Positions 40,141-58,209 of a stretch of DNA of 64,000 bases are shown here, in pieces (positions within the stretch are counted from its first letter, which is position 1; every line of letters starts with the position of its first letter). A model generated the notes under the pieces. That model was not told the origin of the DNA. It ran no database searches and worked only from the letters and a program-made list of their open reading frames with translations. The DNA comes from Cyanobacteria bacterium P01_D01_bin.50 (GTDB lineage Bacteria > Cyanobacteriota > Cyanobacteriia > Cyanobacteriales > Nostocaceae): positions 4,249 through 68,248 of the forward strand of contig JBCCSG010000001.1 of assembly GCA_039200565.1 (NCBI GenBank), read 5' to 3'. Position numbers and translations under genes: made by a program.

Positions 40141-41727
40141 TTACAATTTGTCTGTAGATATTACTCGTGCATTAAAACCGCGATCGCGCAAGAAAAATCG
40201 AGAATATTTTTGTGCGCCTTCGCGCTCTTTAAACTCTGCGGCTTGAACAAATTTACCTAGTTTTGTATTACGGATAAAGGCATCGGGTACGAAACGTCGT
40301 ACTTCATCCAAGGTGTATATGCTAGTTACAGGTACAAGTACAACGTATCTTTGTTTGATTGGCTTTTCTATTGCTTTATCTAATGCTTTCCAGGTTTGCG
40401 AATTTACGATTCCGTAGGGGGGTAATTCATTATCACGTTGGAATTTTTTGACTGCTTCCCAAGTCGAGCTTCCAAAGTAACCTGTGTTATCGCTCTTGAA
40501 GTATTCTAGTTCCCGCAACATTTCTTGTAGTTTGGTGACGCATTCGCCTTTGTCACCTCGTTGAAGTACGGGTTTTTCGCATTTCGGCTTTTCAGGTTTA
40601 GGGAGCTTGTCAATATTTTGCCAAGTTTGTGGCCCTACAACGCCATCGGTAAACAGCCCTTTATCTCCCTGGAATCTTTTTACGGCTTTTACTGTCTTAG
40701 AATCAAAATTGCCGTCACGATTGGATGTGAAATAACCCCAATGCCACAATCTAGTTTGTAGGTATTTTACATAATTACCCTTGTCCCCAGATCGAAGAGT
40801 AGGACATTTGCCGTCAGCGCAAAAGCCGGGTTGAAATTTATCAGACTTTGGTTTTTTAATTGCTTTATCAATTGCTTGTTGAGTTTTTGGCCCTACAATT
40901 CCATCAGCAATTAAACCTTTATCTTTCTGGAATCGAATTACAGCATCTCTGGTAAGCGGACCAAAATAGTCATTTATTGTTCCTTTAAAGTAGGTTAACC
41001 GCTGCAAACGCTTTTTTAAAGATATAACTTCTGGATTTCTCGATCCTAAACGAAGAATGGAGTTATTACCGCCAATACCATTATTATTAGCTGTCTTTAT
41101 GCTTTGTTTGAGTGCTGTTAAAGTTTTTGTACCGGCAATTCCATCAGCAATTAAACCTTTATCTTTCTGAAATCTAAGAACAGCATCTTGGGTAACGGGA
41201 CCAAAATAACTTCCTGGATTACCAACAAAGTAATTCAACTGTTTTAAATCTTGCTGAAGTTTTTTAACAGCTTGATTGCGACTACCAAGTTGAAGCAAAT
41301 CTGTTTGATTGCTTTGAGGGTTTGAACTGGAACATTTAGATTGAAGAGTTCTTTGTGTATTTCTGCCTACAATACCATCAGTTGTGAGTCCGTTATCTTT
41401 CTGAAACTTAGTTACAGAAATTTTAGTTTTTGAACCGTAATAACCACTGACTGAGGTATTAAAGTAACCTAGTTCCTTCAAACACTTTTGAATGGCTGTA
41501 ACTGATGCACCTTTACTTCCGTATTTCTCTAATGCTAAAGCTTGTCCAATACTACTTAAAAAGAATAAAGTTAGCGCCACTGATAATAGACGCATAGCGG
41601 CATAAGTAGACAGCTTTTTCTTCTTAAGTCCGGCAAAAATATTGAAATCAAATTCAAAAGGAATGATCTCGGTACTTTCGGGTGCTTCATAGGCTGAAGC
41701 AGCGTGAATATAACCAATATTTTCCAT
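40141..41727 (-). CDS. paralogous 5x PG_binding_1 + SPOR-like C-terminal domain protein
   Basis: Same architecture as 36987-38498: TM anchor, five LQxxLxxLxYFxG...FQxDxGLxxDGIVGxxT repeats, and the C-terminus YVVLVPVTS...GKFVQAAEFKEREGAQKYSRFFLRDRGFNARVI. Confidence 0.8.
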   Translation of the reverse strand: MENIGYIHAASAYEAPESTEIIPFEFDFNIFAGLKKKKLSTYAAMRLLSVALTLFFLSSIGQALALEKYGSKGASVTAIQKCLKELGYFNTSVSGYYGSKTKISVTKFQKDNGLTTDGIVGRNTQRTLQSKCSSSNPQSNQTDLLQLGSRNQAVKKLQQDLKQLNYFVGNPGSYFGPVTQDAVLRFQKDKGLIADGIAGTKTLTALKQSIKTANNNGIGGNNSILRLGSRNPEVISLKKRLQRLTYFKGTINDYFGPLTRDAVIRFQKDKGLIADGIVGPKTQQAIDKAIKKPKSDKFQPGFCADGKCPTLRSGDKGNYVKYLQTRLWHWGYFTSNRDGNFDSKTVKAVKRFQGDKGLFTDGVVGPQTWQNIDKLPKPEKPKCEKPVLQRGDKGECVTKLQEMLRELEYFKSDNTGYFGSSTWEAVKKFQRDNELPPYGIVNSQTWKALDKAIEKPIKQRYVVLVPVTSIYTLDEVRRFVPDAFIRNTKLGKFVQAAEFKEREGAQKYSRFFLRDRGFNARVISTDKL

Positions 41728-42518: not shown

Positions 42519-44033
42519 CTATTTCAACTGTTGTTGAATCCTATCGTTCAAAGGATTATGCTTAGATGCAAGACGTGCTCTTCCTGAAGCTGCCCATTGA
42601 CGTAGTTGCTCAATTTTTTCTTGGGCAGTTCGTGCTAAAGGTATGATTTGACTGGCAGCTTCTAAAATATCGTCTGTAATAAAATCGCGGTTTTGGCTAA
42701 AGCCGATGTGCATTGCTTCAATTAATGTTTGCTCGATTTCTGCACCGGAAAAATCGGGTGTTTCGTAGGCTAATCTTTCCATGTCGTAGTCTTTGATATT
42801 ATGAGGACGCAATCGTGATAAATGCACGTTGAAAATGGCTTTTCTTTCTTCTTGGATAGGTAAACCGACGAAGAATATTTCATCAAATCTACCTTTACGC
42901 AACAATTCTGGCGGTAATTCTTGAATATCATTGGCGGTGGCGACTACAAATACAGGTGAGGTTTTTTCTGCCATCCAGGTAATAAATGTACCAAATACTC
43001 GGCTGGTAGTTCCCCCGTCGCCTTTGCTACCAAGTCCAGAAAATGCTTTGTCTATCTCATCTATCCACAAAATACAAGGTGCGAGAGCTTCGGATACTTG
43101 TATCATTTGGCGAGTACGCGATTCCGACTCACCTACCAAACCGCCAAATAATCTTCCCACATCTAAACGCAGTAAAGGTAAATGCCAGTTATGAGCGATC
43201 GCTTTTGCGGTTAATGATTTACCAGTTCCCTGAATTCCCACCAACAGTAAACCGCGAGGATGAGGTAAACCATATTGTCGGGCTTTGTCACTGAAGCCAC
43301 CACCCCGACGTAATAACCAATCTTTGAGGTTATCTAATCCGCCGATATCGGAAATTTGTTCTGTAGCGGGGATAAAATCGAGAATTTGGGTTTGACGTAT
43401 AGTTTGGCGTTTTTCTTGCAAAACTAATTCCACATCTTCCGACTCTAATTCACCTTTTTGGGCGATCGCTCTTGACAAAACGCGGCGAATGCGTTCCATA
43501 CTCAAACCTTGAGCGGCACGAACTAATTCATTTAAAACTTGATTTGGGAGAGAATTATTAGTCGCGGCTAAGAGTTTTTCGATTTCGGTTTGAATTTCTG
43601 TAGCGCTAGGTAAAGCGAATTCAACAACTGTCAAGACTTCTGTTAAATCGTCGGGAATAGCGATGCGCGGTGAAAGAATGACAATATTTTTTGGTTGTGA
43701 TTTTAATAAACGCGCTATATTGCGGAGTTTGCGAGAAATCGCCACATCATCTAAAAATCGATGAAAATCTCGGAGAATCAACACGGCTGGTGCTGGTGGA
43801 TGTAACTTTTCCACGAATTCCAAAGCTTGTAGTGGGTTGCGTTTTCCGAAACCCGCATCATTAGGATTACCTTGATAACCGTCTACAAAATCCCAAATGT
43901 AGACTTGACGATTACCAAGTTTTGTAGATTCAGAGCGAATTGCGGCTTCTAAACGCTCTTCTTCCTGGGTGGCAATGTAAATCAATGAGTAGCGAGCGCG
44001 TAGTAATAGTTTAAACTCTTCGCCAAATGTCAT
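42519..44033 (-). CDS. ycf46: AAA+ ATPase Ycf46
   Basis: 504 aa. The N-terminus FKLLLRARYSLIYIATQEEERLE...YIWDFVDGYQGNPND and the AAA module LLVGIQGTGKSLTAKAIA / ILWIDEIDKAF / LLRKGRFDEIFFVGLP match the conserved cyanobacterial/plastid Ycf46 family as I remember it. Confidence 0.75.
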   Translation of the reverse strand: MTFGEEFKLLLRARYSLIYIATQEEERLEAAIRSESTKLGNRQVYIWDFVDGYQGNPNDAGFGKRNPLQALEFVEKLHPPAPAVLILRDFHRFLDDVAISRKLRNIARLLKSQPKNIVILSPRIAIPDDLTEVLTVVEFALPSATEIQTEIEKLLAATNNSLPNQVLNELVRAAQGLSMERIRRVLSRAIAQKGELESEDVELVLQEKRQTIRQTQILDFIPATEQISDIGGLDNLKDWLLRRGGGFSDKARQYGLPHPRGLLLVGIQGTGKSLTAKAIAHNWHLPLLRLDVGRLFGGLVGESESRTRQMIQVSEALAPCILWIDEIDKAFSGLGSKGDGGTTSRVFGTFITWMAEKTSPVFVVATANDIQELPPELLRKGRFDEIFFVGLPIQEERKAIFNVHLSRLRPHNIKDYDMERLAYETPDFSGAEIEQTLIEAMHIGFSQNRDFITDDILEAASQIIPLARTAQEKIEQLRQWAASGRARLASKHNPLNDRIQQQLK

Positions 44034-44447: not shown

Positions 44448-45245
44448 TTACTGCTGGCTTTGTTCCCTTTGCAAAACCCGCAACTGTTCCACCGATAACT
44501 CAGTTACTCTCGATATATCTTCTAAAGCCATGCCAGTGCTAAGTAGATTGATAGCGACTTGTTGTAAAGTTTCGGCTTTACCTTCGGCTCTACCTTCGGC
44601 TTTGCCTTTTTCTTCTCCTTCTTGCAAGATTTCTTGATAAATAGGTGATTCGCGCATAATATCTGACCTCAAAATTCTTCTTATTAAGTCTTTATTCAAT
44701 ACTAAACCAGCCAAAATTGCAGTGGATGCAGCAACGTTACTTTGAGTGCGGTTGTCTGGAATATCGTTTATTTCTCTGGCAACTTGGTTTAATACGTTTT
44801 CAGGATTCGGGGTATTGCTCAATACGGCAAATGGTAGTAACCCAGGGTTTTCTAGAAAAACTTCGGGAGGTTGTTCCCACAGTCGAATGATTTCAAATTC
44901 ATGACGGGTACGAGTTAAGGAAAATGTGTTTTGATAAACCAATTCTGAATTTGTCCGATTAAGGTAAATCACAACTTGATGCATTTCCTTATCAGGAAAG
45001 CGGCGATAACCCCGGATACGGTAATCTATCGTTCGGAAGGGAATTTCTTTATCTGGTTGAGTTTGGAACTCTATATGCAAGATTTTCTCATCTGATTGAA
45101 GCAAAATTAAGGCATCTGCACGAATCGGTTCGAGTGAAAGTTCTTTTGGACTAAGTTCGGTTAAGTTGATGGGTTCTCCCAACAGCCAATTAGCAAAGTC
45201 CCTTGAGAAGTTTTCAGCTAAAAATTTACAGATATTGTCAAACAT
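44448..45245 (-). CDS. Rpn-family (YhgA-like, PD-(D/E)xK) recombination-promoting nuclease / putative transposase with C-terminal DUF4351-like domain
   Basis: MFDNICKFLAENFSRDFANWLLGEP...LEPIRADALILLQSDEKILHIEFQTQPDKEIPFRTIDYRIRGYRRFPDKEMHQVVIYL is the characteristic cyanobacterial Rpn/DUF2887 N-terminal nuclease core. The C-terminal RESPIYQEILQEG...LSTGMALEDISRVTELSVEQL is DUF4351-like. Confidence 0.8.
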   Translation of the reverse strand: MFDNICKFLAENFSRDFANWLLGEPINLTELSPKELSLEPIRADALILLQSDEKILHIEFQTQPDKEIPFRTIDYRIRGYRRFPDKEMHQVVIYLNRTNSELVYQNTFSLTRTRHEFEIIRLWEQPPEVFLENPGLLPFAVLSNTPNPENVLNQVAREINDIPDNRTQSNVAASTAILAGLVLNKDLIRRILRSDIMRESPIYQEILQEGEEKGKAEGRAEGKAETLQQVAINLLSTGMALEDISRVTELSVEQLRVLQREQSQQ

Positions 45246-45638: not shown

Positions 45639-47423
45639 ATGTACCCAACCCCAAAACAACAAGCAGCTGACGAAACTACTCCACCCGATAAGCTTAGGGT
45701 TCTTGCTTATGAAAGTATAGAACTGGGAAGGTTGGTGGCAGCAAATCCCGGTGCAGAGCCGGAATTATTGCGGGAGTTGGCATCGAGTGAAGATAAGGCT
45801 ACCCGCGAAGCTGTAACGACAAATCCCAATACGCCGACTGATGTGCTGCTAAAATTGGCGGGGGATTTTCCGCAATCATTTTTTTCAAATCCAGTATTAT
45901 CTCTATTAATGCTGGAAAATCCGAATTTAGCAACAGACATATCGTATTGGTCTTTGTTAAAGCTGTTAAAACAAGATGATGCGCCAGAGTGGTTTTTGGC
46001 TTGTGCAGCAATGCATTCCAATTCTCTGGTATTGGAAGCTGTAGCCAAACACAAACAAGTTTCGGAACGGGTTTTAGAACAGTTAGCAATTAAGAGTAGG
46101 TACGATCCAGAATTGGGTTTATGTATTGCACAACGCAAAGATGTATCCCAAAGGGTTTTAGAGAAGTTAGCGGAACATGGTGCGGGTTCAGTTCGCTTGC
46201 ATCTGGCTACATGGCCGAAAATTCCTGTTAGGGTTTTGGAAATTTTAGTCGAAAATCCAGAACCAAATTTTAATTTAAGGGTGGCTATTGAAACAAGTAT
46301 CGCTAAAAACCCCAATACGCCGCTAAATGTTCTTGAAACATTGATTAAGGTTCCTTATACCAAAGTCAAAAATGCGATCGCCAAACGTTCTGACTTACCC
46401 AAGCATCTGATAATCGAATTGGCGAAAGATTATCGGGTGCATACGATGAATTTTCTCCCTGAAAATCCCCATATCCCTAGTAGTTGGTTAGAGGAAATGG
46501 CTTCTCATCCTATTGAACGGGTGCGTCAAATGGTAGCAAGACATCCCAACACACCAGCATATTTACTAGTAGAAGGAGCAAAAGATTTAGAACTGCGTCA
46601 GTTTGTTGCTGAAAACCCCAGTACACCTCCAGAAGTTCTCGAAGAATTAGCAATGGATAGCCGGGGAGATATACAGGCTGCTGTCGCTAGGAATCCCAAT
46701 ACTCCAGGTTACGTATTGGAAATATTGGGTAGTACGCCCTTTCATGACTTGTTGTTAGCACGTCATCCTAATACTCCAGATTCTACCCTACAAAGAGTAC
46801 TCTGGCGTTTGGCATTAGACGAACGTTTATCTGTTCGCAAATATGTAGCTCAGCACAGCTTTACACCAGTGTCAATTTTGACACAGTGGGCAAATAATTC
46901 ACCGGAGCTTCGTCCATGGATTGCCTTAAATACTCGCACTCCGTCGCGTATCTTAGAGCAACTTGCCAAGGATACATCGAAAGATGTGCGTTATGGTGTG
47001 GCAAAAAATATTAATACTCCTCCCCAAGTTTTGGAAAAACTGGCTGAAGATTGGCGATTGGAAGTGCGTCAGGCTGTAGCTAGCAATCCTAAAACACCTG
47101 GAGATGTTCTGGAGATATTAATTAAGGATTGGCACTTGCGTTCATTTATTGCTCAAAACCCTAACACTCCAGCAACGGCATTAGAGCATCTCACGCAATT
47201 TTTCCGATATGACTGGTATATAGTACAGCATCCAAACACGCCACCTCAACTACGGCAGAAGTTATTAGAAGAATTTTCTACCAGCGTTGTCGAAACAGAA
47301 AGATTATTTGTAGCAAGACATGCAGAAACACCTATAGAGATTTTAGAACACCTAACCGAGGATGAAGACCCAGTTGTTTCTAAAGCCGCAAAACGTTCGT
47401 TGAGGAAACGCCAGGAAAGTTGA
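45639..47423 (+). CDS. LRV-type (leucine-rich repeat variant / HEAT-like) alpha-solenoid repeat protein, paralogue 1
   Basis: 594 aa. About 13 units carry the hallmark (N/H)P(N)TPxxxLxxLA followed by xxVRxxVA (e.g. TTNPNTPTDVLLKLA, ARNPNTPGYVLEIL, ASNPKTPGDVLEIL). There is no catalytic motif, signal peptide or TM segment. Confidence 0.8.
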   Translation: MYPTPKQQAADETTPPDKLRVLAYESIELGRLVAANPGAEPELLRELASSEDKATREAVTTNPNTPTDVLLKLAGDFPQSFFSNPVLSLLMLENPNLATDISYWSLLKLLKQDDAPEWFLACAAMHSNSLVLEAVAKHKQVSERVLEQLAIKSRYDPELGLCIAQRKDVSQRVLEKLAEHGAGSVRLHLATWPKIPVRVLEILVENPEPNFNLRVAIETSIAKNPNTPLNVLETLIKVPYTKVKNAIAKRSDLPKHLIIELAKDYRVHTMNFLPENPHIPSSWLEEMASHPIERVRQMVARHPNTPAYLLVEGAKDLELRQFVAENPSTPPEVLEELAMDSRGDIQAAVARNPNTPGYVLEILGSTPFHDLLLARHPNTPDSTLQRVLWRLALDERLSVRKYVAQHSFTPVSILTQWANNSPELRPWIALNTRTPSRILEQLAKDTSKDVRYGVAKNINTPPQVLEKLAEDWRLEVRQAVASNPKTPGDVLEILIKDWHLRSFIAQNPNTPATALEHLTQFFRYDWYIVQHPNTPPQLRQKLLEEFSTSVVETERLFVARHAETPIEILEHLTEDEDPVVSKAAKRSLRKRQES

Positions 47424-47432
47424 TCAGGAAAT

Positions 47433-47521
47433 GGGGAGATAGGGAGAAAAATAATTCCTTACTCCTAACTCCTAACTCCGCGAGCACCTAACTACTAACC
47501 ACTAACCACTATCCAAAATCC
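47433..47521. repeat. short compound STRR spacer (GGGGAGAT x2, CTCCTAA x2.5, CTAAC-type units, CCAAAAT)
   Basis: ggggagatagggagaaaaataattccttactcctaactcctaactcc...ctaactactaaccactaaccactatccaaaatcc. It fills the whole LRV-MoxR intergenic gap. Confidence 0.85.
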
Positions 47522-47522
47522 T

Positions 47523-48524
47523 ATGACTCCTAGCGAACTTAAAGTATTTTTAGACCAGCTTATCCGTAATAATATTCAAATCAGTACCATGATTTGGGGA
47601 CCTCCCGGTATTGGTAAATCTAGTATTGTTGGTCAGTTAGCACGAGAAAGTGACATTCAATTCGTAGATGTAAGACTGTCTCAATTAGCACCTACTGATT
47701 TGCGGGGTTTGCCGGTTGCTGAAGGTGGTATTTCTAAGTGGTTTCCACCGGAATTTCTGCCACGTAAGGGTAAAGGTATATTATTCCTTGATGAGTTAAA
47801 TATGGCTCCTCCAGCAATGCAGGGAGTGGCACAACAGTTGATTTTAGACCGCTGCGTAGGCTCCTACGAAGTACCAGATGGTTGGTTTGTATGGGCAGCA
47901 GGAAACCGTAAAGAAGATCGTGCAGCTGTATTTGATATGCCTTCGCCTTTGGCAAATAGATTTTTGCATCTAGAAGTACAACCAGATTTTGAAAGCTTCA
48001 AATCTTATGCTTTAGAAAAAGGCGTACACGAGCAGATAATTGCTTTTCTTTCTTTCCGCACCACTTTATTACATAAAATAGATTCCCAACAACCAGCTTG
48101 GCCCTCTCCTCGTTCTTGGGTTATGGCAAGTGCTTTACATTGTGCCGGATTAGCCATTAATCCAGCAGTAGGTACGGCTGCCGCCACTGAGTTTTGTTCA
48201 TACATTGCAATGTACGAAAATATACCCAATCTAATCGCCATTTTGGAAGGAAAAGGGGAAACTATCCACTTTCCTAAAGAACCCAGCGTTAGATACGCAA
48301 CAGTAATTGGGTTAACTGTACGTGCAGATAATGCCAATCAAGCGCTACATGCCTTCAACTGGTTAAATCGAGTTGCAACAACTGAATGGGTAAGACTTTT
48401 CGCTGTAGATTTATCGCGAGTTATGGAAAGTAAAGGTAAGCGAGGAGTTTTAGCTAATTTATTGAGTAAAGAACCAGAATTCAAGAAATTATTGCAAGAT
48501 TATCTAGAATCACAGAAGCCCTAA
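47523..48524 (+). CDS. MoxR-like AAA+ ATPase (AAA_5 type)
   Basis: 333 aa, single AAA module. Walker A WGPPGIGKSS, Walker B GILFLDELNMA, then VWAAGNRKEDR and LANRFLHLEV blocks typical of MoxR/AAA_5 proteins. Confidence 0.85.
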   Translation: MTPSELKVFLDQLIRNNIQISTMIWGPPGIGKSSIVGQLARESDIQFVDVRLSQLAPTDLRGLPVAEGGISKWFPPEFLPRKGKGILFLDELNMAPPAMQGVAQQLILDRCVGSYEVPDGWFVWAAGNRKEDRAAVFDMPSPLANRFLHLEVQPDFESFKSYALEKGVHEQIIAFLSFRTTLLHKIDSQQPAWPSPRSWVMASALHCAGLAINPAVGTAAATEFCSYIAMYENIPNLIAILEGKGETIHFPKEPSVRYATVIGLTVRADNANQALHAFNWLNRVATTEWVRLFAVDLSRVMESKGKRGVLANLLSKEPEFKKLLQDYLESQKP

Positions 48525-48756
48525 GTTGATAGTTGTTAGTTGTTAGTTGTTAGTTGATGGTTGATAGTTGTTAGTTGATAGTTACTTTTTATTTGGAAGT
48601 TCATATTGTTTTCTAACTACTAACCACCAACTCCTAACTCCTAACTCCTAACTCCTAACTCCTAACTCCTAACTCCTAACTCCTAACCACCAACTCCTAA
48701 CTCCTAACTCCTAACTCCTAACTCCTAACTCCTAACTCCTAACTCCTAACCACTAA
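48525..48756. repeat. two opposed heptamer arrays filling the MoxR-VWA spacer: (GTTAGTT/GTTGATA)n 48525-48584 and [(CTCCTAA)8-CCACYAA]x2 48613-48756
   Basis: Read directly. Sixteen perfect CTCCTAA units lie in two blocks of eight (48631-48686 and 48694-48749), each followed by CCACCAA/CCACTAA. Confidence 0.95.
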
Positions 48757-48766
48757 TTATTTTAAA

Positions 48767-49984
48767 ATGACTGAAGATATACAAAAAAGTATCAGTTCCT
48801 CTTTGTTACGTCTGCAAACGAAATCGCCATTTTTCGCAACGCTGGCAATGTTTGCTCGTTTTGTTCCTACGGAGAAATTACCAACTGCTGCTACTGATGG
48901 TAAAGATATTTTCTATAATGTAGAGTTTTTATTATCTTTAACTCCAAAGCAACTTGATGGTGTGTTATTACACGAAGTTTTACATGCAGCGCTGCTTCAC
49001 GTGCCGCGTCGGGGTGTAAGGGATGCTCAGTTGTGGAATATTGCGGCTGATATCGTTATCAACGGTATGATTGCGACTCATGGCTTTGAGTTACCAGAGG
49101 GAACTTTAAGAGAAGTTAATTTAGAGCATTTAAGTGTTGAGGAAGTTTATGAAATCCTACTTCAAGATGCCGATAATGCACCGCAATTAACTAATCCCGA
49201 TTTACTCGATAATCCACCCGAAGATGCTGGTGGCGAGCAACAAAAAGGTAATAAGGGAGAGACTCAGGAAGGGGAACAAAAGGAAGGAAAAGGAGAAAGT
49301 TCGCCGGCTTCCCAAGGTGGTGATAGCATGTCTCAAGCCAAAAAAGCTGCAATGGAAGCGCATTGGCGAAATGCGATGCAACAAGCTGCAACTGTGGCTC
49401 GTACGGCAAATAAAGGGAATCTTGGGGGAGGTATTGAACGAGAGTTGGAAAATTTAAATTCCGCTCAAATTGATTGGCGCTCTTATTTATGGCGATATTT
49501 AGTACAAACCCCTACTGACTTTTCCGGATTCGATCGCCGTTTTATTGGCCGCAGGCTATATCTGGAAAGCTTACAAGGAGAATCGATTCGGGTTTATTTA
49601 GCTTTGGATACCAGTGGCTCGATTGATACAAAATTATTGGGTTTATTTTTCTCGGAAGTGCAGGGAATTTTAAGTTCTTACCCCCACATCAAATGCGAGT
49701 TTTATTACGTTGATGCCGAAGTTTATGGCCCCTATGAAATCAAGGCCGATTCTATGCCACCAAAGCCCCAAGGTGGTGGCGGTACTTCTTTTGTTCCTTT
49801 CTTTGATAAGGTTGCTCAAAGATGGGATGGACAAACTCAGGGAGTATGTGTTTATTTAACAGATGGCTATGGTACTTTCCCTGATACAACACCGGAATTA
49901 CCTGTGTTGTGGGTAGTTACTCCCGGTGGTTTGTCATTAGAAGAGTTTCCTTTTGGGGAAGCTGTACGATTGTTATCCGTTTAA
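48767..49984 (+). CDS. HExxH metallopeptidase-like domain + VWA-like domain protein (DUF2201_N/DUF2201 architecture)
   Basis: 405 aa. HExxH in GVLLHEVLHAALLHVPRR, a low-complexity acidic/basic linker EDAGGEQQKGNKGETQEGEQKEGKGESS, and a VWA-like C-terminal half with MIDAS DxSxS (YLALDTSGSID). Confidence 0.8.
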   Translation: MTEDIQKSISSSLLRLQTKSPFFATLAMFARFVPTEKLPTAATDGKDIFYNVEFLLSLTPKQLDGVLLHEVLHAALLHVPRRGVRDAQLWNIAADIVINGMIATHGFELPEGTLREVNLEHLSVEEVYEILLQDADNAPQLTNPDLLDNPPEDAGGEQQKGNKGETQEGEQKEGKGESSPASQGGDSMSQAKKAAMEAHWRNAMQQAATVARTANKGNLGGGIERELENLNSAQIDWRSYLWRYLVQTPTDFSGFDRRFIGRRLYLESLQGESIRVYLALDTSGSIDTKLLGLFFSEVQGILSSYPHIKCEFYYVDAEVYGPYEIKADSMPPKPQGGGGTSFVPFFDKVAQRWDGQTQGVCVYLTDGYGTFPDTTPELPVLWVVTPGGLSLEEFPFGEAVRLLSV

Positions 49985-50004: not shown

Positions 50005-50180
50005 CACTAGGGTGTTTTTTCAAATCCGCCGTCACCCTATAAGGGTGCGGCTATAGGTACAAAGTCTGCTGTAGCAGCAGACTATGAAAAACTTGAGTTT
50101 TTTAGCCCTTTAAGGGCTTTGTAATTGTAGCTCCAGGCTTTAGCCTGAGAGCGGTTGGGGTATGAAAACACGCCCTAATG
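50005..50180. mobile_element. MITE-like ~176-bp element: imperfect 20-bp terminal inverted repeats enclosing four short hairpins
   Basis: TIRs are cactagggtgttttttcaaa (50005-50024) versus the reverse complement of tatgaaaacacgccctaatg (50161-50180), 16/20 matches. Internal hairpins: gccgtcaccc/gggtgcggc (50028-50051), agtctgctg-tag-cagcagact (50063-50083, perfect 9 bp), agccc/gggct (50104-50118), caggc/gcctg (50134-50147). Confidence 0.5.
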
Positions 50181-50284: not shown

Positions 50285-51211
50285 TTACAAATTTTGGGCG
50301 ATTAACTCTCCAAGTAAACCACTAAAAACCATCTTTAAATTTAGAGTATAATCAATATGTCTAAATGTCTCTTCTAAGGGAAGTAAAGTCCTTTTCCATC
50401 CCAAACCATCAGTAACCCAAATAAATTTATGTCCTTGTATGGATATAAAATCAAATAAATTTTTATACTCTCCTGCGGTTGCATTTAATTTAGAACCACC
50501 CCCACCATAAAAATTAGATTTAATTAAATAGAGATGATTGTGATTTTTCACCGCAAAATCAAAACGCCGACTCGATTTATCTACTTCAACATCTATATTC
50601 CATTGCTTTTTTATTTTGTCAGATGTCGCTTGTAAAATAAATAAAAAATTATTTTCCTGACAGATTGTAGTAATTAAACTTTCTAAGATCGTTTCCATGG
50701 TGTTTCCACCACGATTTTTTCTACCGTTTGTATCTAAACCGACTTCGATTCCTAATACATAATCTGGAATACTTTTGAGGGTTTTATTTCTAAATAATTC
50801 TAATACACCTGTATTTCTAGTGAATTCGACAATATTATCAATATCTTGATTCGACAAAGTTTTTTTGTTATTAAAATTAAATGATTTATAGCTAAAATTA
50901 TTATTCCTGTAATCTGTTAATATCTCAAAGTTAGAAGTACGGCAAGCAATTAAAATAGGTATAACATGAATCATTTGAGGACTTTGTTTTAATAAAATAC
51001 GAAATTCATTTTCTATATCTTCTTTGCCAATTAAGTAATTTAATGTATTTAAATGAATTTCTATGGCTCTAAATTTTTCTAGTACTTTTTGCCAATTAAC
51101 AAAATAATCCCATCCTGTTATTGAATCTGTTAACGTATTTTGAAAATACTGAAACACTTCTGATTCATCAGAACAGTTTAAATACTTTTTAAATAAAAAA
51201 TTAAATTTCAT
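50285..51211 (-). CDS. type II restriction endonuclease, DpnII/MboI family (predicted GATC specificity)
   Basis: 308 aa. The blocks GIEVGLDTNGRKNRGG, RRFDFAVK, NFYGGGGSKLNATAGEY and WVTDGLGW parallel the conserved blocks of R.DpnII as I recall them (GVEVGMDTNGRKNRTG, KRFDFVIK, NFYSGSGSKLNETA, WITDGQGW). Confidence 0.85.
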   Translation of the reverse strand: MKFNFLFKKYLNCSDESEVFQYFQNTLTDSITGWDYFVNWQKVLEKFRAIEIHLNTLNYLIGKEDIENEFRILLKQSPQMIHVIPILIACRTSNFEILTDYRNNNFSYKSFNFNNKKTLSNQDIDNIVEFTRNTGVLELFRNKTLKSIPDYVLGIEVGLDTNGRKNRGGNTMETILESLITTICQENNFLFILQATSDKIKKQWNIDVEVDKSSRRFDFAVKNHNHLYLIKSNFYGGGGSKLNATAGEYKNLFDFISIQGHKFIWVTDGLGWKRTLLPLEETFRHIDYTLNLKMVFSGLLGELIAQNL

Positions 51212-52148
51212 AGTTCATAATTAATAATTCATTAATAGGGCTGCGCTTTGAAGATTTACTATTTATAAAGCGGGAAGCTTTTACTCTCTCTATACGATAA
51301 TCGGAATAAACCCTGTCAAAAAAATCATCTTCAGGATTATGATTTTTTGGATCGGAATTACTTAAAAGAAGTAAAGCACCTTTTTGATCTAGTTTTTTAT
51401 AGTATTTATATAATCTTATTTGTTCTGAATCTCCAAATATTTGATGGGAATAAGAAGTAAAATTAGATGTATTACTAATAGGTCTATAAGGTGGATCGAA
51501 ATATACAAAAGTATCGCTATCGATAAATTCTTCGTATTGACTAAAATCTGCTTTCACAATTTTTGTTTTTTGCAAAATTTTCGCCACCGCTTTTAAATTT
51601 TCTGGATGACATAAAGATGGTTTTTTATATTTACCGATAGGAACATTAAAATCTCCCTTAGAATTTACTCGAAATAATCCATTAAAACAAGTTTTATTTA
51701 AGAAGATAATTCGTGCAGTTCTCTCGATCCACTCTCCATTATAATTTAGTAAATTTATTTTGTCTCTTCTATAGTTAAATTTTTCTCTCTCTTGATAAAA
51801 ATATCTAGATCTTTGATTTTCATTTAACGATAAATATTTATTTTCAATATCCAATAATTTTTCAATTAATTCATCTACATTTCGCTGAATAGTTTTATAT
51901 GCTAATATCAAATCAGCATTAATATCTGATATCAATAATTCTTTGACTTGGTAATTGTGTGCCAACCAAAAAAATAATGCACCACCACCCATAAAAGGTT
52001 CTACATATTTTGTTATTGAACCATTATTCAATTCTTTCGGTAAAAATTGACTTATTTGTTTGATTAACTGAGTTTTACCGCCAGCCCATTTCAAAAAAGG
52101 CTTTGGCGCTACTGAATAATCAAACACATTTGAAACAGTCGAAACCAT
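51201..52148 (-). CDS. Dam/DpnM-family N6-adenine DNA methyltransferase (predicted GATC)
   Basis: 315 aa. FLKWAGGKTQL, AdoMet motif EPFMGGGALFF, NGLFRVNSKGDFNVP and catalytic FDPPY. It overlaps the downstream endonuclease ORF by 11 bp. Confidence 0.9.
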   Translation of the reverse strand: MVSTVSNVFDYSVAPKPFLKWAGGKTQLIKQISQFLPKELNNGSITKYVEPFMGGGALFFWLAHNYQVKELLISDINADLILAYKTIQRNVDELIEKLLDIENKYLSLNENQRSRYFYQEREKFNYRRDKINLLNYNGEWIERTARIIFLNKTCFNGLFRVNSKGDFNVPIGKYKKPSLCHPENLKAVAKILQKTKIVKADFSQYEEFIDSDTFVYFDPPYRPISNTSNFTSYSHQIFGDSEQIRLYKYYKKLDQKGALLLLSNSDPKNHNPEDDFFDRVYSDYRIERVKASRFINSKSSKRSPINELLIMNYEI

Positions 52149-52676: not shown

Positions 52677-53321
52677 ATGGCTTATACTGCTTATGTTTCC
52701 ACAAAAAATGCTAATTCTCTTACAGTTCGTAATGCGCCATTAGGAGATAAAGTAGATTCCCTGAGTAATGGTAGTGAAGTGATAGTGCGAGGAGAATCTG
52801 TTCCTAAAGGAAATTGGAATTGGGTAGAAATTGGTGACAACCGTTGGGTAGCGTTGGAGTATTTGACAACGATTAGAAATACAAAGGTAGTAGCTACTCG
52901 CTCAAAAGAAACGATTGGTGGCGGTTTGAGAGTATATAAAACTCGATTAATTGATAGCAGGGGTAATGTTGTAAATAGGGTAAGGCTTATTTCCGGTAGA
53001 GTCAACAAACAAACTCCTTCTGATAAACCTGATTCTCAAACTCCTCCACCCTTTGGAATTTACACTTTTGATACACCTGGATGGGTATATGAAGGTGAAG
53101 ATTTGAAAGCAGAATTTGGGGGAGTTTGGTCGCCGATTACACCTAGTTTCAGTACAAATCGTTCGGAAATAGGGGTTCATTACGATCCATCAACCTTTAA
53201 GAGAAATCATAATGTTGGCACCTCAGGTTGTTTTGCAACGCCTACCGCGAATGAAAGAGATACTATGACAAAGTTTATTCGCACCCACAAACCAAAGCAC
53301 TTTATTTTTTATGAAGGATAA
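52677..53321 (+). CDS. SH3b-like domain fused to an L,D-transpeptidase-fold (YkuD/Tlde1-like) domain
   Basis: The N-terminus (LTVRNAPLGDKVDSLSNGSEVIVRGESVPKGNWNWVEIGDNRWVALEYL) is SH3b-like. The C-terminus has PPPFGIYTF...IGVHYDPSTFKRNHNVGTSGCFATP, an H-x16-C spacing with (S/T)xGC as in the YkuD/Tlde1 active-site motif. No signal peptide. Confidence 0.45.
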   Translation: MAYTAYVSTKNANSLTVRNAPLGDKVDSLSNGSEVIVRGESVPKGNWNWVEIGDNRWVALEYLTTIRNTKVVATRSKETIGGGLRVYKTRLIDSRGNVVNRVRLISGRVNKQTPSDKPDSQTPPPFGIYTFDTPGWVYEGEDLKAEFGGVWSPITPSFSTNRSEIGVHYDPSTFKRNHNVGTSGCFATPTANERDTMTKFIRTHKPKHFIFYEG

Positions 53322-53908: not shown

Positions 53909-54003
53909 TCTTGACTAATGACATAAAAATACGAAACAAATATGTAACATATAAGTTCAAAAGAAACTACCATTACTTTTGTATAATTTACTCATTATTC
54001 GCT

Positions 54004-56268
54004 ATGGCTAATCGTTCCCATTTCCGGAATTTATCAAAACTTCGGCAAGAAGCAGCGAGCGAGAAAACTTCGCCACAGCGCTTAGAAGAGTTAGCTAAAA
54101 TTAATATCGAATTAGCGAGAATTGTAGCAAGCAATGCGAATGCTGCTCCCGATTTGTTGCAGGATTTTGGTAGCAACCCAGATAATATTATCCGGAAAAA
54201 TGTTGCTGCTAATCCTAACACGCCAACAGAGATGTTGTGGAAATTGGGAGCGGAATTCCCTCAAATGCTCTTAGAAAATCCGGTGTTTTCTTTATTGTTG
54301 TTGGAAAATCCCAATTTCGTGACGGATATTCCATTGATTACTTTGCAAGCTTTGCTAAAGTTAGACGAGGTATCACCAGAGTTTCTGGAATTGGCAACGA
54401 GTCATGATGATGTGGAAGTGTTGCTAACCATCGCCATGAATCCTAAAACACCAAAAACAGCTTTGCAAAGATTAGCTCAGGTACAAAATATAGAAGTTGC
54501 TGCTTCAGCACGCGAACATATTTCCTTAGCTGGAGAAATGCAGCGGGGATGGGATGAAGCCGCGATGCTGGCAATGCAGACTACTAATTTACCACGCGAT
54601 CGAGAATCGGAAATTTACCTATGGGCAATTGGTGCTATACCGGAATATCTGTTAAAGATGTTGGATGCTGAGGTACGCTTGCATATTGCTGAAAGTTTAA
54701 ATACTTCCGAGCAGGTTTTGGCAATATTGGCGACGGATAGTTACAGTAAAGTGCGTGCAACAGTTGCTCAAAATCCTCGTACTCCCATTAATATTGTGGA
54801 ACAATTAATGGGAGATATTAGCGATATAGTAAGAGAAGCAGTTGCTTATCATCCTCTTACACCCCTAAATTTACACCAACAGTTTCAACTGCAATTGGAA
54901 GCAATAGAAAATCCGGTAACTTCTGAAGATATCCTCAGACAACTTTCTACCAGTCAATGGATGCGGATTCGTTTGGGTGTTGCAGCTCACTCTAACACTC
55001 CTACAGATGTATTATTGCAATTAGCAAGCAGTGATGAAGATGTAATGGTACGCAAAGCTGTAGCGCTTAACCTTAATTCTCCCGTAGAAGCCTTAGAAAA
55101 ACTGGCAAAGGATAATGATGCTTGGATAGTTAAGATTGTCACAACTCATCCCAATAATCCAGCACATATTGCTCCCAATCTGCAAAAAAATACAATACAC
55201 GACTATATAAATACAGCTCGCGCTCAAGGCATACCAATTATGCCAGTATACGCCGTTTACGATCCTAACTTGTTAACGGCCATGGCAGAGAGTAGCAACT
55301 ATGATACTCGTCAAAGAGTTGCGCGACACCCCAATACTCCCATTCATATTTTAGAAAAACTTGCCGATAAAGAAGATAATTCTATTCTAGAAACCGCACT
55401 TACCAACCTTTCTCACAATTCCAAAACCCCCCAGAGTACTTTGCAATGTTTAGCGCAAACTTCCGACTTTAAAATTTGCACTGCTGTAGCGCGCCATCGC
55501 AACACCGATACCATGACGCTTGCACAATTAGGAAAACATCATCGTTGGGAAGTGCGCACCATAGTAGCGAAAAATCTTCAAACTCCCCTAAAAACCCTCG
55601 TACAACTGATTCAAGATAAACATAGAACAGTTCGAGAAGCAGCGATAAACCATCCTTACGCTCCTGCAAGCATTTTAGAACAACTTGAAGTTGTTAGAAA
55701 CCCCAACACATCTGACGACATCCTCAATACCCTTTCTCATAGCAAACAGGTAATCATTCGTCAGGGGGTTGCACGCCATCCCAATGCTGACAAAAATCTG
55801 CTCAAGCAACTAGCAGAAGATAACATTAGTATGGTGCGTCTGGGTGTAGCTGAAAATCCCCATACCCCTAGTAGTTTGTTGGAATTATTAGCAGTAGACA
55901 AAGATAATGCAGTTGTTGTTGCCGTAGCAACTCATGCCAATACATCTTTAAATATTCTCGAACAACTAAGCATTTTAGGAAAGCCAGATAATCAAATTAA
56001 GCAAACAGCAATTAAAACTTTACTCAACCGCTTTCCAGATAGAATCAGCAAAATTTTAGCCGCGTGCATTACCTCGAATACTCCAACATTCACCCGCTTA
56101 CTCGTTTTATTACATCCTTCCACACCAAAGGAAATTTTAGCAGAAAATATTCATTCTCCCTCCTGGTTAGAAAGATATGCGATCGCAAAAAATCCCAACA
56201 CTCCTTCTGAGATTCGTGCAGCTTTAACTCGTGATGGTAATCGAATTGTGCGTGCTGCCGCTTTGTAG
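54004..56268 (+). CDS. LRV-type alpha-solenoid repeat protein, paralogue 2
   Basis: About 754 aa from ATG 54004 (MANRSHFRNL...). The track TTG at 53911 lies next to the repeat element and encodes a low-complexity leader. About 16 NP(N)TP-type units. The N-terminal 130 aa are collinear with paralogue 1 (AANPNTPTEMLWKLGAEFPQMLLENPVFSLLLLENPNF vs TTNPNTPTDVLLKLAGDFPQSFFSNPVLSLLMLENPNL). Confidence 0.8.
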   Translation: MANRSHFRNLSKLRQEAASEKTSPQRLEELAKINIELARIVASNANAAPDLLQDFGSNPDNIIRKNVAANPNTPTEMLWKLGAEFPQMLLENPVFSLLLLENPNFVTDIPLITLQALLKLDEVSPEFLELATSHDDVEVLLTIAMNPKTPKTALQRLAQVQNIEVAASAREHISLAGEMQRGWDEAAMLAMQTTNLPRDRESEIYLWAIGAIPEYLLKMLDAEVRLHIAESLNTSEQVLAILATDSYSKVRATVAQNPRTPINIVEQLMGDISDIVREAVAYHPLTPLNLHQQFQLQLEAIENPVTSEDILRQLSTSQWMRIRLGVAAHSNTPTDVLLQLASSDEDVMVRKAVALNLNSPVEALEKLAKDNDAWIVKIVTTHPNNPAHIAPNLQKNTIHDYINTARAQGIPIMPVYAVYDPNLLTAMAESSNYDTRQRVARHPNTPIHILEKLADKEDNSILETALTNLSHNSKTPQSTLQCLAQTSDFKICTAVARHRNTDTMTLAQLGKHHRWEVRTIVAKNLQTPLKTLVQLIQDKHRTVREAAINHPYAPASILEQLEVVRNPNTSDDILNTLSHSKQVIIRQGVARHPNADKNLLKQLAEDNISMVRLGVAENPHTPSSLLELLAVDKDNAVVVAVATHANTSLNILEQLSILGKPDNQIKQTAIKTLLNRFPDRISKILAACITSNTPTFTRLLVLLHPSTPKEILAENIHSPSWLERYAIAKNPNTPSEIRAALTRDGNRIVRAAAL

Positions 56269-56272
56269 AAAG

Positions 56273-56580
56273 AGGAGATGGGGAGATAGGGAGATGGGGA
56301 GATGGGGGGATGGGGAGATGGGGAGATGGGGAGATGGGGAGATGGGGAGATGGGGAGATGGGGAGATGGGGAGATGGGGAGAGGGGGAGATGGGGAGAAA
56401 AATTCCTCACTACTCACTACTCACTACTCACTACTCACTACTCACTCCTAACTCCTAACTCCTAACTCCTAACTCCTAACTACTAACTCCTAACTCCTAA
56501 CTCCTAACTCCTAACTCCTAACTCCTAACTCCTAACTCCTAACTTTTTCAATCCAAAATCCAAAATCCAAAATCTAAAAT
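56273..56580. repeat. compound tandem-repeat block: (GGGGAGAT)~15, (TACTCAC)~6, (CTCCTAA)5-CTACTAA-(CTCCTAA)8, (CCAAAAT)~4
   Basis: Read directly. It occupies the entire 312-bp gap between the convergent LRV2 and DUF4139 genes. Confidence 0.95.
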
Positions 56581-58209
56581 TTAAATATCCAACCCCATCA
56601 CTGTTAACTGCGGTGGGTATTCTACGGTAAACTGATAATAAATATCTTGTTTCTGTTGTGGCGCAAGAATTAAATCCCATTGCAATGTTCCCATTTCACC
56701 AGCTTGAATTTGGGGATTTGTACGATTTAGACGTACTTTTATTTGTTCGTTGCGACTTACTGGTAGTTGTTCGATAAGTTCTAAATTCGCTACTGTATCG
56801 AGTAAATTAGTAATTTGCAATCGATATGCATAAGTTATTTTACGACTATTACCAATAAACTTTTTATCGACTTCACGCTCGACTAAATCCCGTTCAATTT
56901 TCAAACCTTCATCAATACCCAAGTTTAATTTAAATTCTTCACCCGGTACCGTATTTTCTAAATCAGAATTTCCCACAAAAATATTATCGCGGAAAATGTT
57001 GGCTTTACCCGGTAATAAAGTCACACCGTCAGAATTATTTTTCACCTTGGCTTGTAAATAAGTAAAGCTTACCAAACGCGGCATTACTATATAGCTCAAG
57101 TGACAAGGATAATCATCTTGAAAAATTGTAGTTTTGTGAGGTGCGCCATCGCTAGGGATATTTCCACCACCATCTAAATTAAAGGTAACTACGTTTCCTT
57201 TTCGGAATACTTCTGCTGTAATTATATCTGCTGGAATAGTCTCATCTTCTAACTCTTCGATTTCCGAGGAATAATCAGATGCTTCAAAATCCAAGCTGCG
57301 AGATTGTGTAGCCATTGGCTGTGTTGCCAACTTTAATCCTCTTCTAGGAACAATTGGCGGTTGTAAAATATCGATATACCAAGGTTGTGGCTTCGGTGGT
57401 AAAGTACCGTTTCCCGGTTTGGCTGTAGAAAGTGTTAAATTTACATTTGTCCAATCTTCGCCGGTATTTTGAATGATTTGCGCCAAGTATCCCAAATTAA
57501 CGCTTTTACTTTTGCTATCAACTCGAATATCGTAAAGCGGTTTCCAACTGGCGCTATTGACTGCATAAGAGACTTCTAACTCAAATTCCCCTACATCTGT
57601 GGCTTCAATTCCCACCGTTAAATTAAAACTAACACTGGGCTGGGTTGACTGAGTTTCTGTTAATGAAGCATACAGTACCTCCAACTGCTTTTCTAATTCC
57701 TGCTGTTGATTTTTATAATCTTCCGTGGCGATCGCATATTCTGTATACTGACTGCCAAGGAAGTTGAGTAAATCCAAAGTTTCGCTGAGGCTAATACTTT
57801 TACGCGCTAAACTAATGGAAAATTGATCCTCAGTCTTCTCCCGCAAACCTTCGATAAACCGCGACTGTAACGCCAAAGCATCCATTTGAGCTTGAAACTG
57901 CCGCTTCTGTGCTTCGAGTTGCTTGATTTGTTGATTTAATTGCGAGACTCGCGCCACTACCGAATCGGTGGTGTAAACGCGCTCCACATTCACACCCAAC
58001 AAACGCACCGCCACATTACCTTTACCACTAACCCGCACTGACTCTGTTTCCAAAGTTACTGGCAGTTGGGAGACTATCAACTCCCGCTCGTTTCCGTTTA
58101 ACTCCACTACACCACGGCGCGTCACTAAGGCTTGATTAGTGTAAACTGCAACTGCAATAATATCTGTTTCTACGACTTTACGCGGAGATGGTATTTCCTG
58201 GTTAACCAC
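56581..58209 (-). CDS. DUF4139 / DUF4140 (TIGR02231, MuiA-like) family protein with central coiled coil
   Basis: 542 aa. The N-terminal IIAVAVYTNQALVTRRGVVEL..., the coiled segment (QLNQQIKQLEAQKRQFQAQMDAL) and the large C-terminal beta-rich region fit this family as I recall it. Confidence 0.6.
   Translation of the reverse strand: MVNQEIPSPRKVVETDIIAVAVYTNQALVTRRGVVELNGNERELIVSQLPVTLETESVRVSGKGNVAVRLLGVNVERVYTTDSVVARVSQLNQQIKQLEAQKRQFQAQMDALALQSRFIEGLREKTEDQFSISLARKSISLSETLDLLNFLGSQYTEYAIATEDYKNQQQELEKQLEVLYASLTETQSTQPSVSFNLTVGIEATDVGEFELEVSYAVNSASWKPLYDIRVDSKSKSVNLGYLAQIIQNTGEDWTNVNLTLSTAKPGNGTLPPKPQPWYIDILQPPIVPRRGLKLATQPMATQSRSLDFEASDYSSEIEELEDETIPADIITAEVFRKGNVVTFNLDGGGNIPSDGAPHKTTIFQDDYPCHLSYIVMPRLVSFTYLQAKVKNNSDGVTLLPGKANIFRDNIFVGNSDLENTVPGEEFKLNLGIDEGLKIERDLVEREVDKKFIGNSRKITYAYRLQITNLLDTVANLELIEQLPVSRNEQIKVRLNRTNPQIQAGEMGTLQWDLILAPQQKQDIYYQFTVEYPPQLTVMGLDI

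Follow-up and report, generated by a model that had tools for sequence, protein, structure and literature searches.

LRV-head solenoids, an AAA+ ATPase, and a DUF2201 protein: a linked gene set in cyanobacteria and its two-gene core in phages and plasmids

Do three adjacent genes of a cyanobacterium act together and, if so, to what end? The genes lie on one strand of a 64-kb stretch of DNA from Cyanobacteria bacterium P01_D01_bin.50 (contig JBCCSG010000001.1, positions 4,249 to 68,248), which, at its full length, we call the window. They encode, in order, an alpha-solenoid of LRV repeats (LRV-A), a single-module AAA+ ATPase of the MoxR class, and a DUF2201-family protein in which a zincin-like HExxH domain precedes a VWA domain with a metal ion-dependent adhesion site (MIDAS). 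A second LRV paralogue, LRV-B, lies downstream (Table 1). An earlier sequence-only reading of the window had joined the three genes into one ATP-driven system and, from the nuclease and restriction–modification (R-M) genes at its flanks, had suggested a role in defense. The joining of the LRV gene to the other two stands; the defense role drawn from the flanks is not supported. Specifically, linkage between LRV genes and the ATPase–DUF2201 pair is real, and the pair itself is an ancient, portable two-gene cassette that occurs alone in many phages and plasmids. We give about an even chance to the explanation that the three genes constitute a conserved module for protein remodeling and processing, with the LRV-head proteins as its clients or substrate adaptors.

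LRV genes are linked to the ATPase–DUF2201 pair

The survey set comprised 80 species-representative genome loci with DUF2201 relatives, all cyanobacterial and at 57-97% identity. Their open reading frames (ORFs) were labeled by means of the window proteins, over a fetched flank of at most 10 kb per side. An ATPase orthologue adjoins the DUF2201 gene in 61 of the 80 loci, and an LRV ORF lies within 3 kb of the pair in 68 (47 of 58 once the near-identical Rivularia clade is set aside). LRV-coding sequence makes up a fraction of 0.34-0.46 of the bases at 0-2 kb from the pair, a share that shrinks progressively with distance and is at most 0.006 at 8-10 kb. Nearby LRV ORFs share the strand of the pair in 75 of 91 cases; the other 16 are on the opposite strand. 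The commonest gene orders are LRV, ATPase, DUF2201, LRV (12 loci) and LRV, ATPase, DUF2201 (11 loci), and tandem LRV paralogues number up to 7 at one locus. Among the Nostocales, the positions are orthologous: an LRV594-like gene is always upstream of the ATPase gene, and an LRV785-like gene is downstream of DUF2201. At one locus (L010), the LRV785 orthologue comes directly after DUF2201, across a gap of 541 bp that holds no R-M genes. Thus, LRV-B is part of the same locus, and the R-M pair that stands before it in the window is an insertion.

The association also appears when the search begins from the other side. In a reciprocal metagenome scan seeded with the LRV head motif and counting loci with at least 5 kb of flank on both sides (n = 16), the pair lies within 5 kb at 9 loci, and the remaining 7 hold orphan LRV paralogues. 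Genomes with two copies of the pair (L016/L053, L028/L039, and L047/L068) have LRV genes at each copy. The order LRV, ATPase, DUF2201 recurs on contigs of 62-67% GC, including a 3.8-Mb genome, with genes for branching enzyme, globin, and phosphoglycerate dehydrogenase as neighbors. A Thermus oshimai plasmid keeps this order as well; its DUF2201 protein is 49% identical, and the protein encoded upstream (296 aa) has LRV repeats and a degenerate head. On plasmid pSYSA of Synechocystis 6803, the MoxR gene is sll7029 and the VWA gene sll7028, as deduced from the adjacent sll7030/7031, and a 637-aa protein with a full LRV head is encoded 4 kb downstream on the opposite strand. In the window, just two LRV genes occur across 64 kb, both at the module locus. 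Taken together, the density decay, the gene order, the reciprocal scan, the plasmids, and the two-copy genomes place the linkage far above chance. The proposal that the solenoid belongs functionally with the pair is therefore supported: LRV synteny is kept in other genomes, namely in many orders of cyanobacteria, in lineages of high GC, and on two plasmids.

Variant arrangements exist. On one metagenome contig (L097, 10001-17936), LRV, MoxR, and DUF2201 genes are followed 1.7 kb on by a second MoxR–DUF2201 pair, a tandem duplication. In what we call the Nostoc-type second copy, MoxR and DUF2201 genes are followed at some remove by LRV genes on the opposite strand, and a fusion of pentapeptide repeats with WD40 (700-760 aa) always lies between DUF2201 and the LRV genes. 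This fusion protein may be an additional repeat-protein partner in that subtype. Hyella patelloides has a solitary DUF2201 gene (L046/L005, 5457-9161): neither an ATPase gene nor an LRV gene lies within 10 kb, and the genes immediately before it encode a trypsin-like protease and a split prokaryotic Argonaute (PAZ and Piwi).

Predicted sites, the LRV head, and a portable pair

The ATPase and the DUF2201 protein carry intact predicted AAA+, zincin, and MIDAS sites. The ATPase exceeds the Pfam cutoffs for AAA (30.7 vs 21.2 bits, 4.9e-7) and AAA_5 (27.5 vs 22, 3.5e-6) and remains below the cutoff for AAA_3, the model for MoxR proper (23.5 vs 27). The Walker A GPPGIGKS and Walker B ILFLDELN motifs that had been read from the sequence are present and invariant across homologues. 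Specifically, GPPGIGKS, F88-x-D90-E91, the sensor 1 residues A126-G127-N128, and the arginine finger, R146, do not vary among 23 sequences, phage and plasmid copies included, and P196-R-S-W199 (PRSW) is likewise invariant across cyanobacteria, plasmids, and phages. Among cyanobacterial orders, high-GC lineages, and pSYSA, the ATPases are 62-75% identical. Of the solved structures, the AAA ring of Midasin is the best match to the ATPase profile (6or5, 1e-16), far ahead of NorQ (5.5e-4). RavA and CbbQ are absent from the 60 PDB matches listed for the profile.

The DUF2201 protein is 100% identical to a protein of a marine cyanobacterial metagenome-assembled genome and shares 90-98% identity with proteins encoded in Rivularia, Calothrix, and Richelia assemblies. 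The assignment of this HExxH- and DxSxS-bearing protein to DUF2201_N and DUF2201 proved correct, with both Pfam domains above threshold and the motifs invariant: DUF2201_N (PF13203) scores 132.2 bits against a cutoff of 23.2 over residues 11-251, and DUF2201 (PF09967) scores 64.6 bits against 26.4 over residues 277-402, in the C-terminal half. When cyanobacterial, Thermus, plasmid, and phage homologues of 24-56% identity were compared, H69, E70, H73, R81, N91, D95, D281, S283, S285, T340, and D366 were invariant from cyanobacteria to phages. HExxH and the MIDAS pattern DxSxS...T...D are likewise invariant in 70 cyanobacterial and 14 distant DUF2201 sequences. D95, in a WNxAxD motif, is a likely third metal ligand; H78 is invariant within the cyanobacterial clade only. 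The linker between the two domains (residues 135-190) is acidic, with 12 D+E against 4 K+R, as well as Gly-rich and hypervariable.

AlphaFold models the VWA domain confidently and the linker as disordered. The VWA half dominated the fold search with the whole model, so the N-terminal domain was modeled alone (pLDDT 87, pTM 0.84). The solved folds that best match the VWA half are the MIDAS domains of MDN1 (8ql1, E=4e-4) and Rea1 (6qtb), together with NorD (9qhe). Those that match the N-terminal domain are selecase, jannalysin, SPRTN, the protease domain of ArdC, IrrE/PprI, and HtpX. Because these N-terminal matches are weak (E>=0.03) and are all minimal zincins, the domain appears to have a zincin-like fold with no close solved relative. 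PDB sequence searches with the DUF2201 protein and LRV-A returned no matches. In the library that was searched for work on DUF2201, cyanobacterial LRV proteins, pSYSA genes, and N4-like VWA proteins, we found no functional study, and we found no paper on an association of LRV proteins with the pair.

LRV-A exceeds the Pfam thresholds for both LRV (PF01816) and LRV_2 (PF25591). The roughly 13 LRV-type repeats attributed to it were recovered as 13 xxxTP repeat anchors, 11 of them within residues 302-561 at a spacing of 24-30 aa. None of the three proteins has a transmembrane-like segment, the highest Kyte–Doolittle mean over 19 residues being at most 1.31. LRV proteins of the module begin with a head of about 120 residues (consensus ...NPNTPxDVLLKLGxEFPxxLLxNPVFxLLLLENPN...). 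In an alignment of 20 heads from diverse loci, N62, L70, F77, P78, N84, P85, and E93 (window numbering) are invariant, and E93 is the single invariant acidic residue. Behind the head come repeat arrays of about 300 to 1135 residues. Among 77 module-linked LRV proteins, 76 have LRV_2 and LRV domains exclusively and no effector domains; 1 has a WGR domain. This WGR domain (PARP/MolR-type) is fused N-terminally to an LRV-head protein encoded directly upstream of DUF2201, with no adjoining ATPase gene.

The head motif distinguishes these proteins from generic repeat proteins. Of 81 cyanobacterial LRV ORFs linked to the module, 62 carry an NPxFxLLLLE-type motif; of 185 LRV ORFs from viral contigs, 0 do. 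None of the 185 lies near a pair, and we rejected them as head proteins; they are generic repeats. A protein search with the 135-aa head alone gave 4 fragment matches only and was replaced by pattern scans.

Distribution of the pair extends far beyond cyanobacteria. A HMMER scan found DUF2201 relatives among 17,949 cluster representatives (50% identity) at E<=1e-3, of which 2,915 are at E<=1e-30, and tblastn with the DUF2201 protein found 404 phage records and 79 plasmids. Among the phage carriers are cyanophage S-TIM5, Thermus phage phiFa, Bacillus phage G, Schitoviridae, and jumbo coliphages. Of 16 loci in viral contigs, 15 have the ATPase gene immediately upstream of DUF2201. Both proteins have full-length matches in PHROGs: the ATPase to phrog_1297 ("ATPase," 9.8e-81) and the DUF2201 protein to phrog_1314 ("HNH endonuclease," 2.9e-84). 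These phage families share the gene order and the catalytic residues of the window pair. They differ from it in identity (24-37%), in having no LRV-head partner, and in their replication-module setting. Given that the protein combines an HExxH zincin with a VWA/MIDAS domain, the "HNH endonuclease" label looks like a propagated annotation error, which the present assignment corrects for phrog_1314. RefSeq uses the same label for phage DUF2201 homologues (e.g., NC_019516.2 157963-159111 and NC_055823.1 59490-60701). The ATPase and DUF2201 genes are thus one of the larger uncharacterized gene pairs shared by bacteria, plasmids, and phages, with sites intact throughout.

In the phage genomes inspected, the pair sits in replication regions. 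Specifically, Acinetobacter phage XC38 (Schitoviridae) has the ATPase gene, a small ORF, DUF2201, a helicase gene, and a DNA polymerase gene; Thermus phage phiFa has RNase H between the two genes; and Synechococcus phage MinM2 has a primase gene near them. In cyanophage S-TIM5, Hsp20 is ahead of the pair. The Thermus plasmid carries the pair between RecQ and an AddB-like/UvrD pair. Inserts between the phage ATPase and DUF2201 genes vary, and no universal third gene was found there. Some phage and viral inserts are DUF3150-like (about 290 aa), and others belong to a family of about 80-100 aa; both kinds may be phage-specific third components.

A proposed mechanism and its rivals

How might a solenoid, an ATPase, and a tethered peptidase work together? 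An analogy with NorQ/NorD, CbbQ/CbbO, and Midasin suggests the following steps. The ATPase would assemble into a hexameric ring. Through its VWA/MIDAS domain, the DUF2201 protein would grip an acidic side chain of its partner, the candidate being Glu93, which lies within the LLLLENP motif of the head. ATP hydrolysis would exert force through the VWA protein, pulling or remodeling the partner, and the tethered zincin would cut the solenoid itself or a protein held by the solenoid. If ring, grip, pull, and cut occur in this way, the LRV-head proteins would serve the machine as cognate clients or as substrate adaptors. Phages use the pair with no LRV proteins, so this family would be a lineage-specific class of client or adaptor, never a universal substrate.

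The choice of Glu93 draws on Midasin. The Midasin clients Ytm1 and Rsa4 combine a ubiquitin-like (UBL) handle, bearing a key acidic residue, with a WD40 body. LRV proteins likewise have a small conserved N-terminal handle with an acidic residue, followed by a repeat-domain body. Since an LRV handle with a variable body mirrors this client layout, Glu93 is the obvious candidate ligand. Midasin/Rea1 is also the nearest solved relative of both the ATPase and the VWA domain, and it too has an acidic disordered region ahead of its MIDAS domain. Midasin, however, fuses six AAA modules and the MIDAS in one chain, whereas here a single AAA module and the VWA domain are on separate proteins, a zincin domain is added, and the LRV handle is helical rather than UBL. 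The similarity is modest and consists of shared AAA_5 and VWA folds; we claim homology no further. A bolder version, a prokaryotic "split mini-Midasin with blade," would have an AAA_5 ring work with a MIDAS domain on an acidic tether. The MIDAS domain would grip the LRV-head Glu, and the machine would extract solenoids from an assembly and cleave them by means of its zincin. We think this version quite unlikely. If true, the pair found in phages and plasmids would be a general ATP-driven machine for extraction and cleavage that had gone unrecognized, possibly the nearest relative among prokaryotes of the Midasin AAA–MIDAS mechanism, and the LRV-head family would be its first identified client class.

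Several observations weigh against the remodeling and processing module. No LRV gene is present in the fetched flank at 11 of the 80 loci, the adjoining ATPase gene is missing at 19 of 80, about half of the LRV-head genes are orphans elsewhere in the genome, and phage and most plasmid pairs occur with no LRV-head gene. The structural match to the Midasin MIDAS is modest (TM 0.28/0.43), and the zincin-domain matches have the weakness given above. Physical interaction, ATPase activity, and proteolysis of the members are predictions from sequence, and the contact between the MIDAS and Glu93 is pure inference. The same gaps could mean that LRV genes are abundant repeat-protein genes that lie nearby by chance, with the two-gene pair as the sole functional unit: orphan LRV-head genes, phage and plasmid pairs, and the 11 loci would all agree with this. 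We find such a coincidence hardly credible, and the observations largely refute it, because LRV density decays from about 0.35-0.46 to about 0 with distance, order is kept across phyla and on plasmids, the same-strand bias is 75 vs 16, and both LRV genes of the window are at this one locus.

A fairly unlikely explanation is an antiphage or conflict system of the MoxR–vWA ternary kind. In such a system, LRV arrays would sense an invader, the ATPase and VWA protein would set a threshold, and the zincin would activate or effect the response. Kaur et al. 2020 (PMC7159879) describe vWA–MoxR ternary systems in which VMAP, iSTAND, FtsH, or a beta-propeller fused to vWA serves as third component. The order is third component, MoxR, vWA; the vWA and VMAP components evolve fast; MoxR has an N-terminal extension with WxhapG / PsWRxa; and vWA has variable C-terminal effector domains. 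Our module has three components in the same order, occurs as several cognate sets in some genomes (two in those noted above), and is, like the ternary systems, frequent in cyanobacteria. The tandem LRV paralogues (up to 7 per locus), the patchy distribution with plasmid copies that include the CRISPR- and toxin–antitoxin-rich pSYSA, and the few neighbors that match TIR, RT, or mad models also suit a conflict role. The module differs from these systems, however, in a third component made of LRV_2 and LRV only, in a VWA domain that ends the DUF2201 protein at residue 402 of 405 and leaves no effector tail, in a Walker A that starts at residue 26 with no WxhapG/PsWRxa region, and in slowly evolving components. 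Judged by these predicted features, it is outside all four published types and would add a fifth, slowly evolving ternary arrangement to the MoxR–vWA systems.

The genomic context also speaks against defense. Profile matches confirm the flanks named in the sequence-only reading (an Rpn gene, a type II R-M pair, and a second LRV paralogue at 53911-56268), but the nuclease and R-M genes are recent arrivals. The Rpn gene is missing between LRV-A and a gene that we take to be Ycf46-like in relatives that are 97-98% identical (L007, by DUF2201, and L090, by the LRV head), and it therefore behaves as a mobile, recent insertion. The R-M pair forms an island of 29% GC in surroundings of about 40% and is missing from the same site in L010; it is thus a horizontally inserted type II cassette that splits an LRV–MoxR–DUF2201–LRV locus. 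PADLOC-DB v2 leaves the three proteins without system matches: LRV-A and the DUF2201 protein have none, and the ATPase has marginal P-loop matches to IetA (E=0.002). Among 143 neighboring ORFs at 58 loci, defense-model matches are few and scattered, and no fourth gene recurs overall beyond pentapeptide repeats (8 ORFs); neighbors at other loci are mostly metabolic. Median identity to the window within the Rivularia clade is 92% for MoxR, 92% for DUF2201, and 88% for LRV-A, in comparison with 95% for the Ycf46-like gene, 84% for DUF4139, and 79/74% for DpnII/Dam. The three genes are under purifying selection and are conserved like their housekeeping neighbors, unlike the fast vWA and VMAP components. 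The pair is, moreover, common in lytic phages. Stable, regulated maturation or turnover fits this conservation and context better than an arms-race immune sensor does.

Two further explanations take the pair itself as the clue. One, which we hold to be improbable, is a DNA-transaction protease machine comparable to Cdc48/p97 with SPRTN or Wss1, which would strip off and cut DNA-trapped proteins or remodel replisomes, with LRV proteins as lineage-specific adaptors. The replication-module phage pairs (the Schitoviridae phage, phiFa, and MinM2), the Thermus plasmid pair between RecQ and AddB-like/UvrD genes, the SPRTN, ArdC, and IrrE/PprI folds among the zincin matches, and the WGR–LRV fusion of one lineage all point this way. 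Early and middle phage regions are replication-rich anyway, however; Pfam shows no DNA-binding domain in the three proteins, the fold matches are weak, WGR is in 1 of 77 LRV proteins, and the cyanobacterial chromosomal neighbors are not DNA-metabolism genes. The other is a classical MoxR–VWA maturation chaperone of the NorQD, CbbQO, or CoxDE type, which would insert metal into, or activate, one enzyme with LRV proteins as scaffolds. The MoxR–VWA pairs characterized to date work as chaperones of this kind (PMC9976466, PMC13036017, and PMC4660213). In those pairs (NorQ/NorD, CbbQ/CbbO, and RavA/ViaA), as here, a single-module AAA+ gene with intact motifs stands beside a VWA/MIDAS gene. NorQ and NorD are among the sequence and structure matches, and the genes evolve slowly. 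Nonetheless, we rate this explanation as decidedly improbable: no client enzyme gene is kept beside the module, which has LRV solenoid partners instead; the invariant N-terminal HExxH zincin domain of the VWA partner is foreign to those chaperones; and the pair is abundant and widespread in phages of unrelated hosts.

A likeness to the Escherichia coli yehF/H/I-yehL-yehM-yehP-yehQ cluster was also considered. There, genes for a MoxR-class ATPase, for a VWA protein, and for a large helical DUF4132 protein with WGR-domain relatives are clustered; a WGR–LRV fusion adjoins DUF2201 in one cyanobacterial lineage. Homology was rejected: BLASTP of the ATPase gives E=3, hhalign of the VWA domain gives a probability of 18%, and the Pfam families differ. 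YehP, unlike the DUF2201 protein, is a CoxE-type VWA protein that has no peptidase domain, and the cluster also has YehM (DUF5682) and YehQ (SWIM).

For the remodeling and processing module, the LRV-head solenoids, with their invariant acidic residue, provide a concrete candidate client for the pair, which opens its mechanism to direct tests. One genetically tractable cyanobacterium, Synechocystis 6803, has both the pair and an LRV-head gene on pSYSA.

Locus architecture and neighboring genes

The ORFs, their strand, and the 99- and 242-bp spacers described for the window were all reproduced (Table 1). Outside the Rivularia clade, most loci have MoxR and DUF2201 genes that either overlap by 4 bp or are separated by 12-40 bp, which indicates that they form a predicted operon; within the clade, the gap is 99 to 429 bp. 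Because heptamer arrays fill the 242-bp gap of the window, it can be read as repeat expansion inside the operon, with no sign of separate units. That spacer lengths range over 99-429 bp among close relatives suggests that the arrays expand and contract quickly. No terminator-like sites were found in the two internal spacers, in a scan whose counts were no higher than in shuffled sequence. A promoter scan did no better than shuffled sequence, and an Rfam scan of the window found nothing.

Table 1. Positions of the module genes, their domains, and other features. Positions are those of the window unless a locus label precedes them.
Feature	Position	Strand	Description
LRV-A	45639..47423	+	594-aa alpha-solenoid; Pfam LRV 1.4e-50, LRV_2 3.6e-36
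LRV-A head domain	45639..46043	+	LRV_2, residues 1-135; motif NPNTP...FP...NPV.SLLMLENP; Glu93 at 45915-45917
Spacer LRV-A/ATPase	47424..47522	+	99 bp, largely heptamer tandem repeats (TAACTCC / CTAACCA)
ATPase	47523..48524	+	333 aa, single-module AAA+ (AAA_5/MoxR class); Walker A 47598-47621, Walker B 47778-47801
Spacer ATPase/DUF2201	48525..48766	+	242 bp; heptamer arrays AGTTGAT x8.6 and CTAACTC x19.7
DUF2201-family protein	48767..49984	+	405 aa; Pfam DUF2201_N 3.4e-38, DUF2201 1.2e-17
DUF2201 protein, zincin-like N-terminal domain	48971-48985 (HExxH)	+	motif position
DUF2201 protein, acidic hypervariable linker	49169-49336	+	between zincin-like and VWA domains
DUF2201 protein, C-terminal VWA domain	49607-49621 (DTSGS)	+	complete MIDAS
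Terminator-like hairpin	50104..50118	+	downstream of DUF2201 gene; weak, site counts not above shuffled sequence
LRV-B	54004..56268	+	second LRV-head paralogue; Pfam LRV 5.3e-58, LRV_2 6.6e-18
Heptanucleotide arrays	47452-47515, 48524-48750, 56404-56592		intergenic; CTAACTC / AGTTGAT / ACTACTA types, at most 20 copies
Rpn family gene	44448-45245	-	TIGR01784, 5e-35; nuclease/transposase-like
DpnII endonuclease and D12 (Dam-like) methyltransferase	50285-52148	-	type II R-M pair; Pfam
Pentapeptide+WD40 fusion	L032:11250-13517, L034:11244-13538, L039:11315-13435, L053:11282-13390	-	Nostoc-type copies
WGR-LRV fusion	L060/L004 7145-9781; L058 826-2799		Thermosynechococcaceae and Acaryochloridaceae contigs
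Phage inserts between pair genes	L089 3987-4859, L248 7018-7893; also L249, L250, L258, L261

The LRV-B ORF opens at TTG 53911 (53911-56268). Its true start is most likely ATG 54004, which gives a protein of 754 aa and matches orthologue length. Just after LRV-B, an octamer repeat (GGAGATGG x15.6) at 56274-56398 creates spurious minus-strand ORFs with PHLPISPS repeats (56090-56417).

The remainder of the window is core chromosome, with genes for SAM synthetase, FNR with a CpcD domain, homoserine dehydrogenase, UvrA, a GGDEF-EAL protein, and the presumed Ycf46-like AAA protein. The last of these, a 504-aa classical AAA protein (42519-44033, minus strand), matches the PADLOC model IetA at 9e-25, which looks like generic AAA similarity. 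As a member of the module it was rejected; it adjoins the module only in the Rivularia clade and on one Nostocales contig (L001). Between the R-M pair and LRV-B, an ORF of 214 aa (52677-53321, plus strand) is 68-94% conserved in the Rivularia clade. Pfam, NCBIfam, and PHROG models give no match to it, and its GTSGCF motif may resemble the active sites of L,D-transpeptidases. Finally, two paralogues with multiple PG_binding_1 repeats (36987-38498 and 40141-41727, minus strand) diverge fast, with a clade median identity of 67%.

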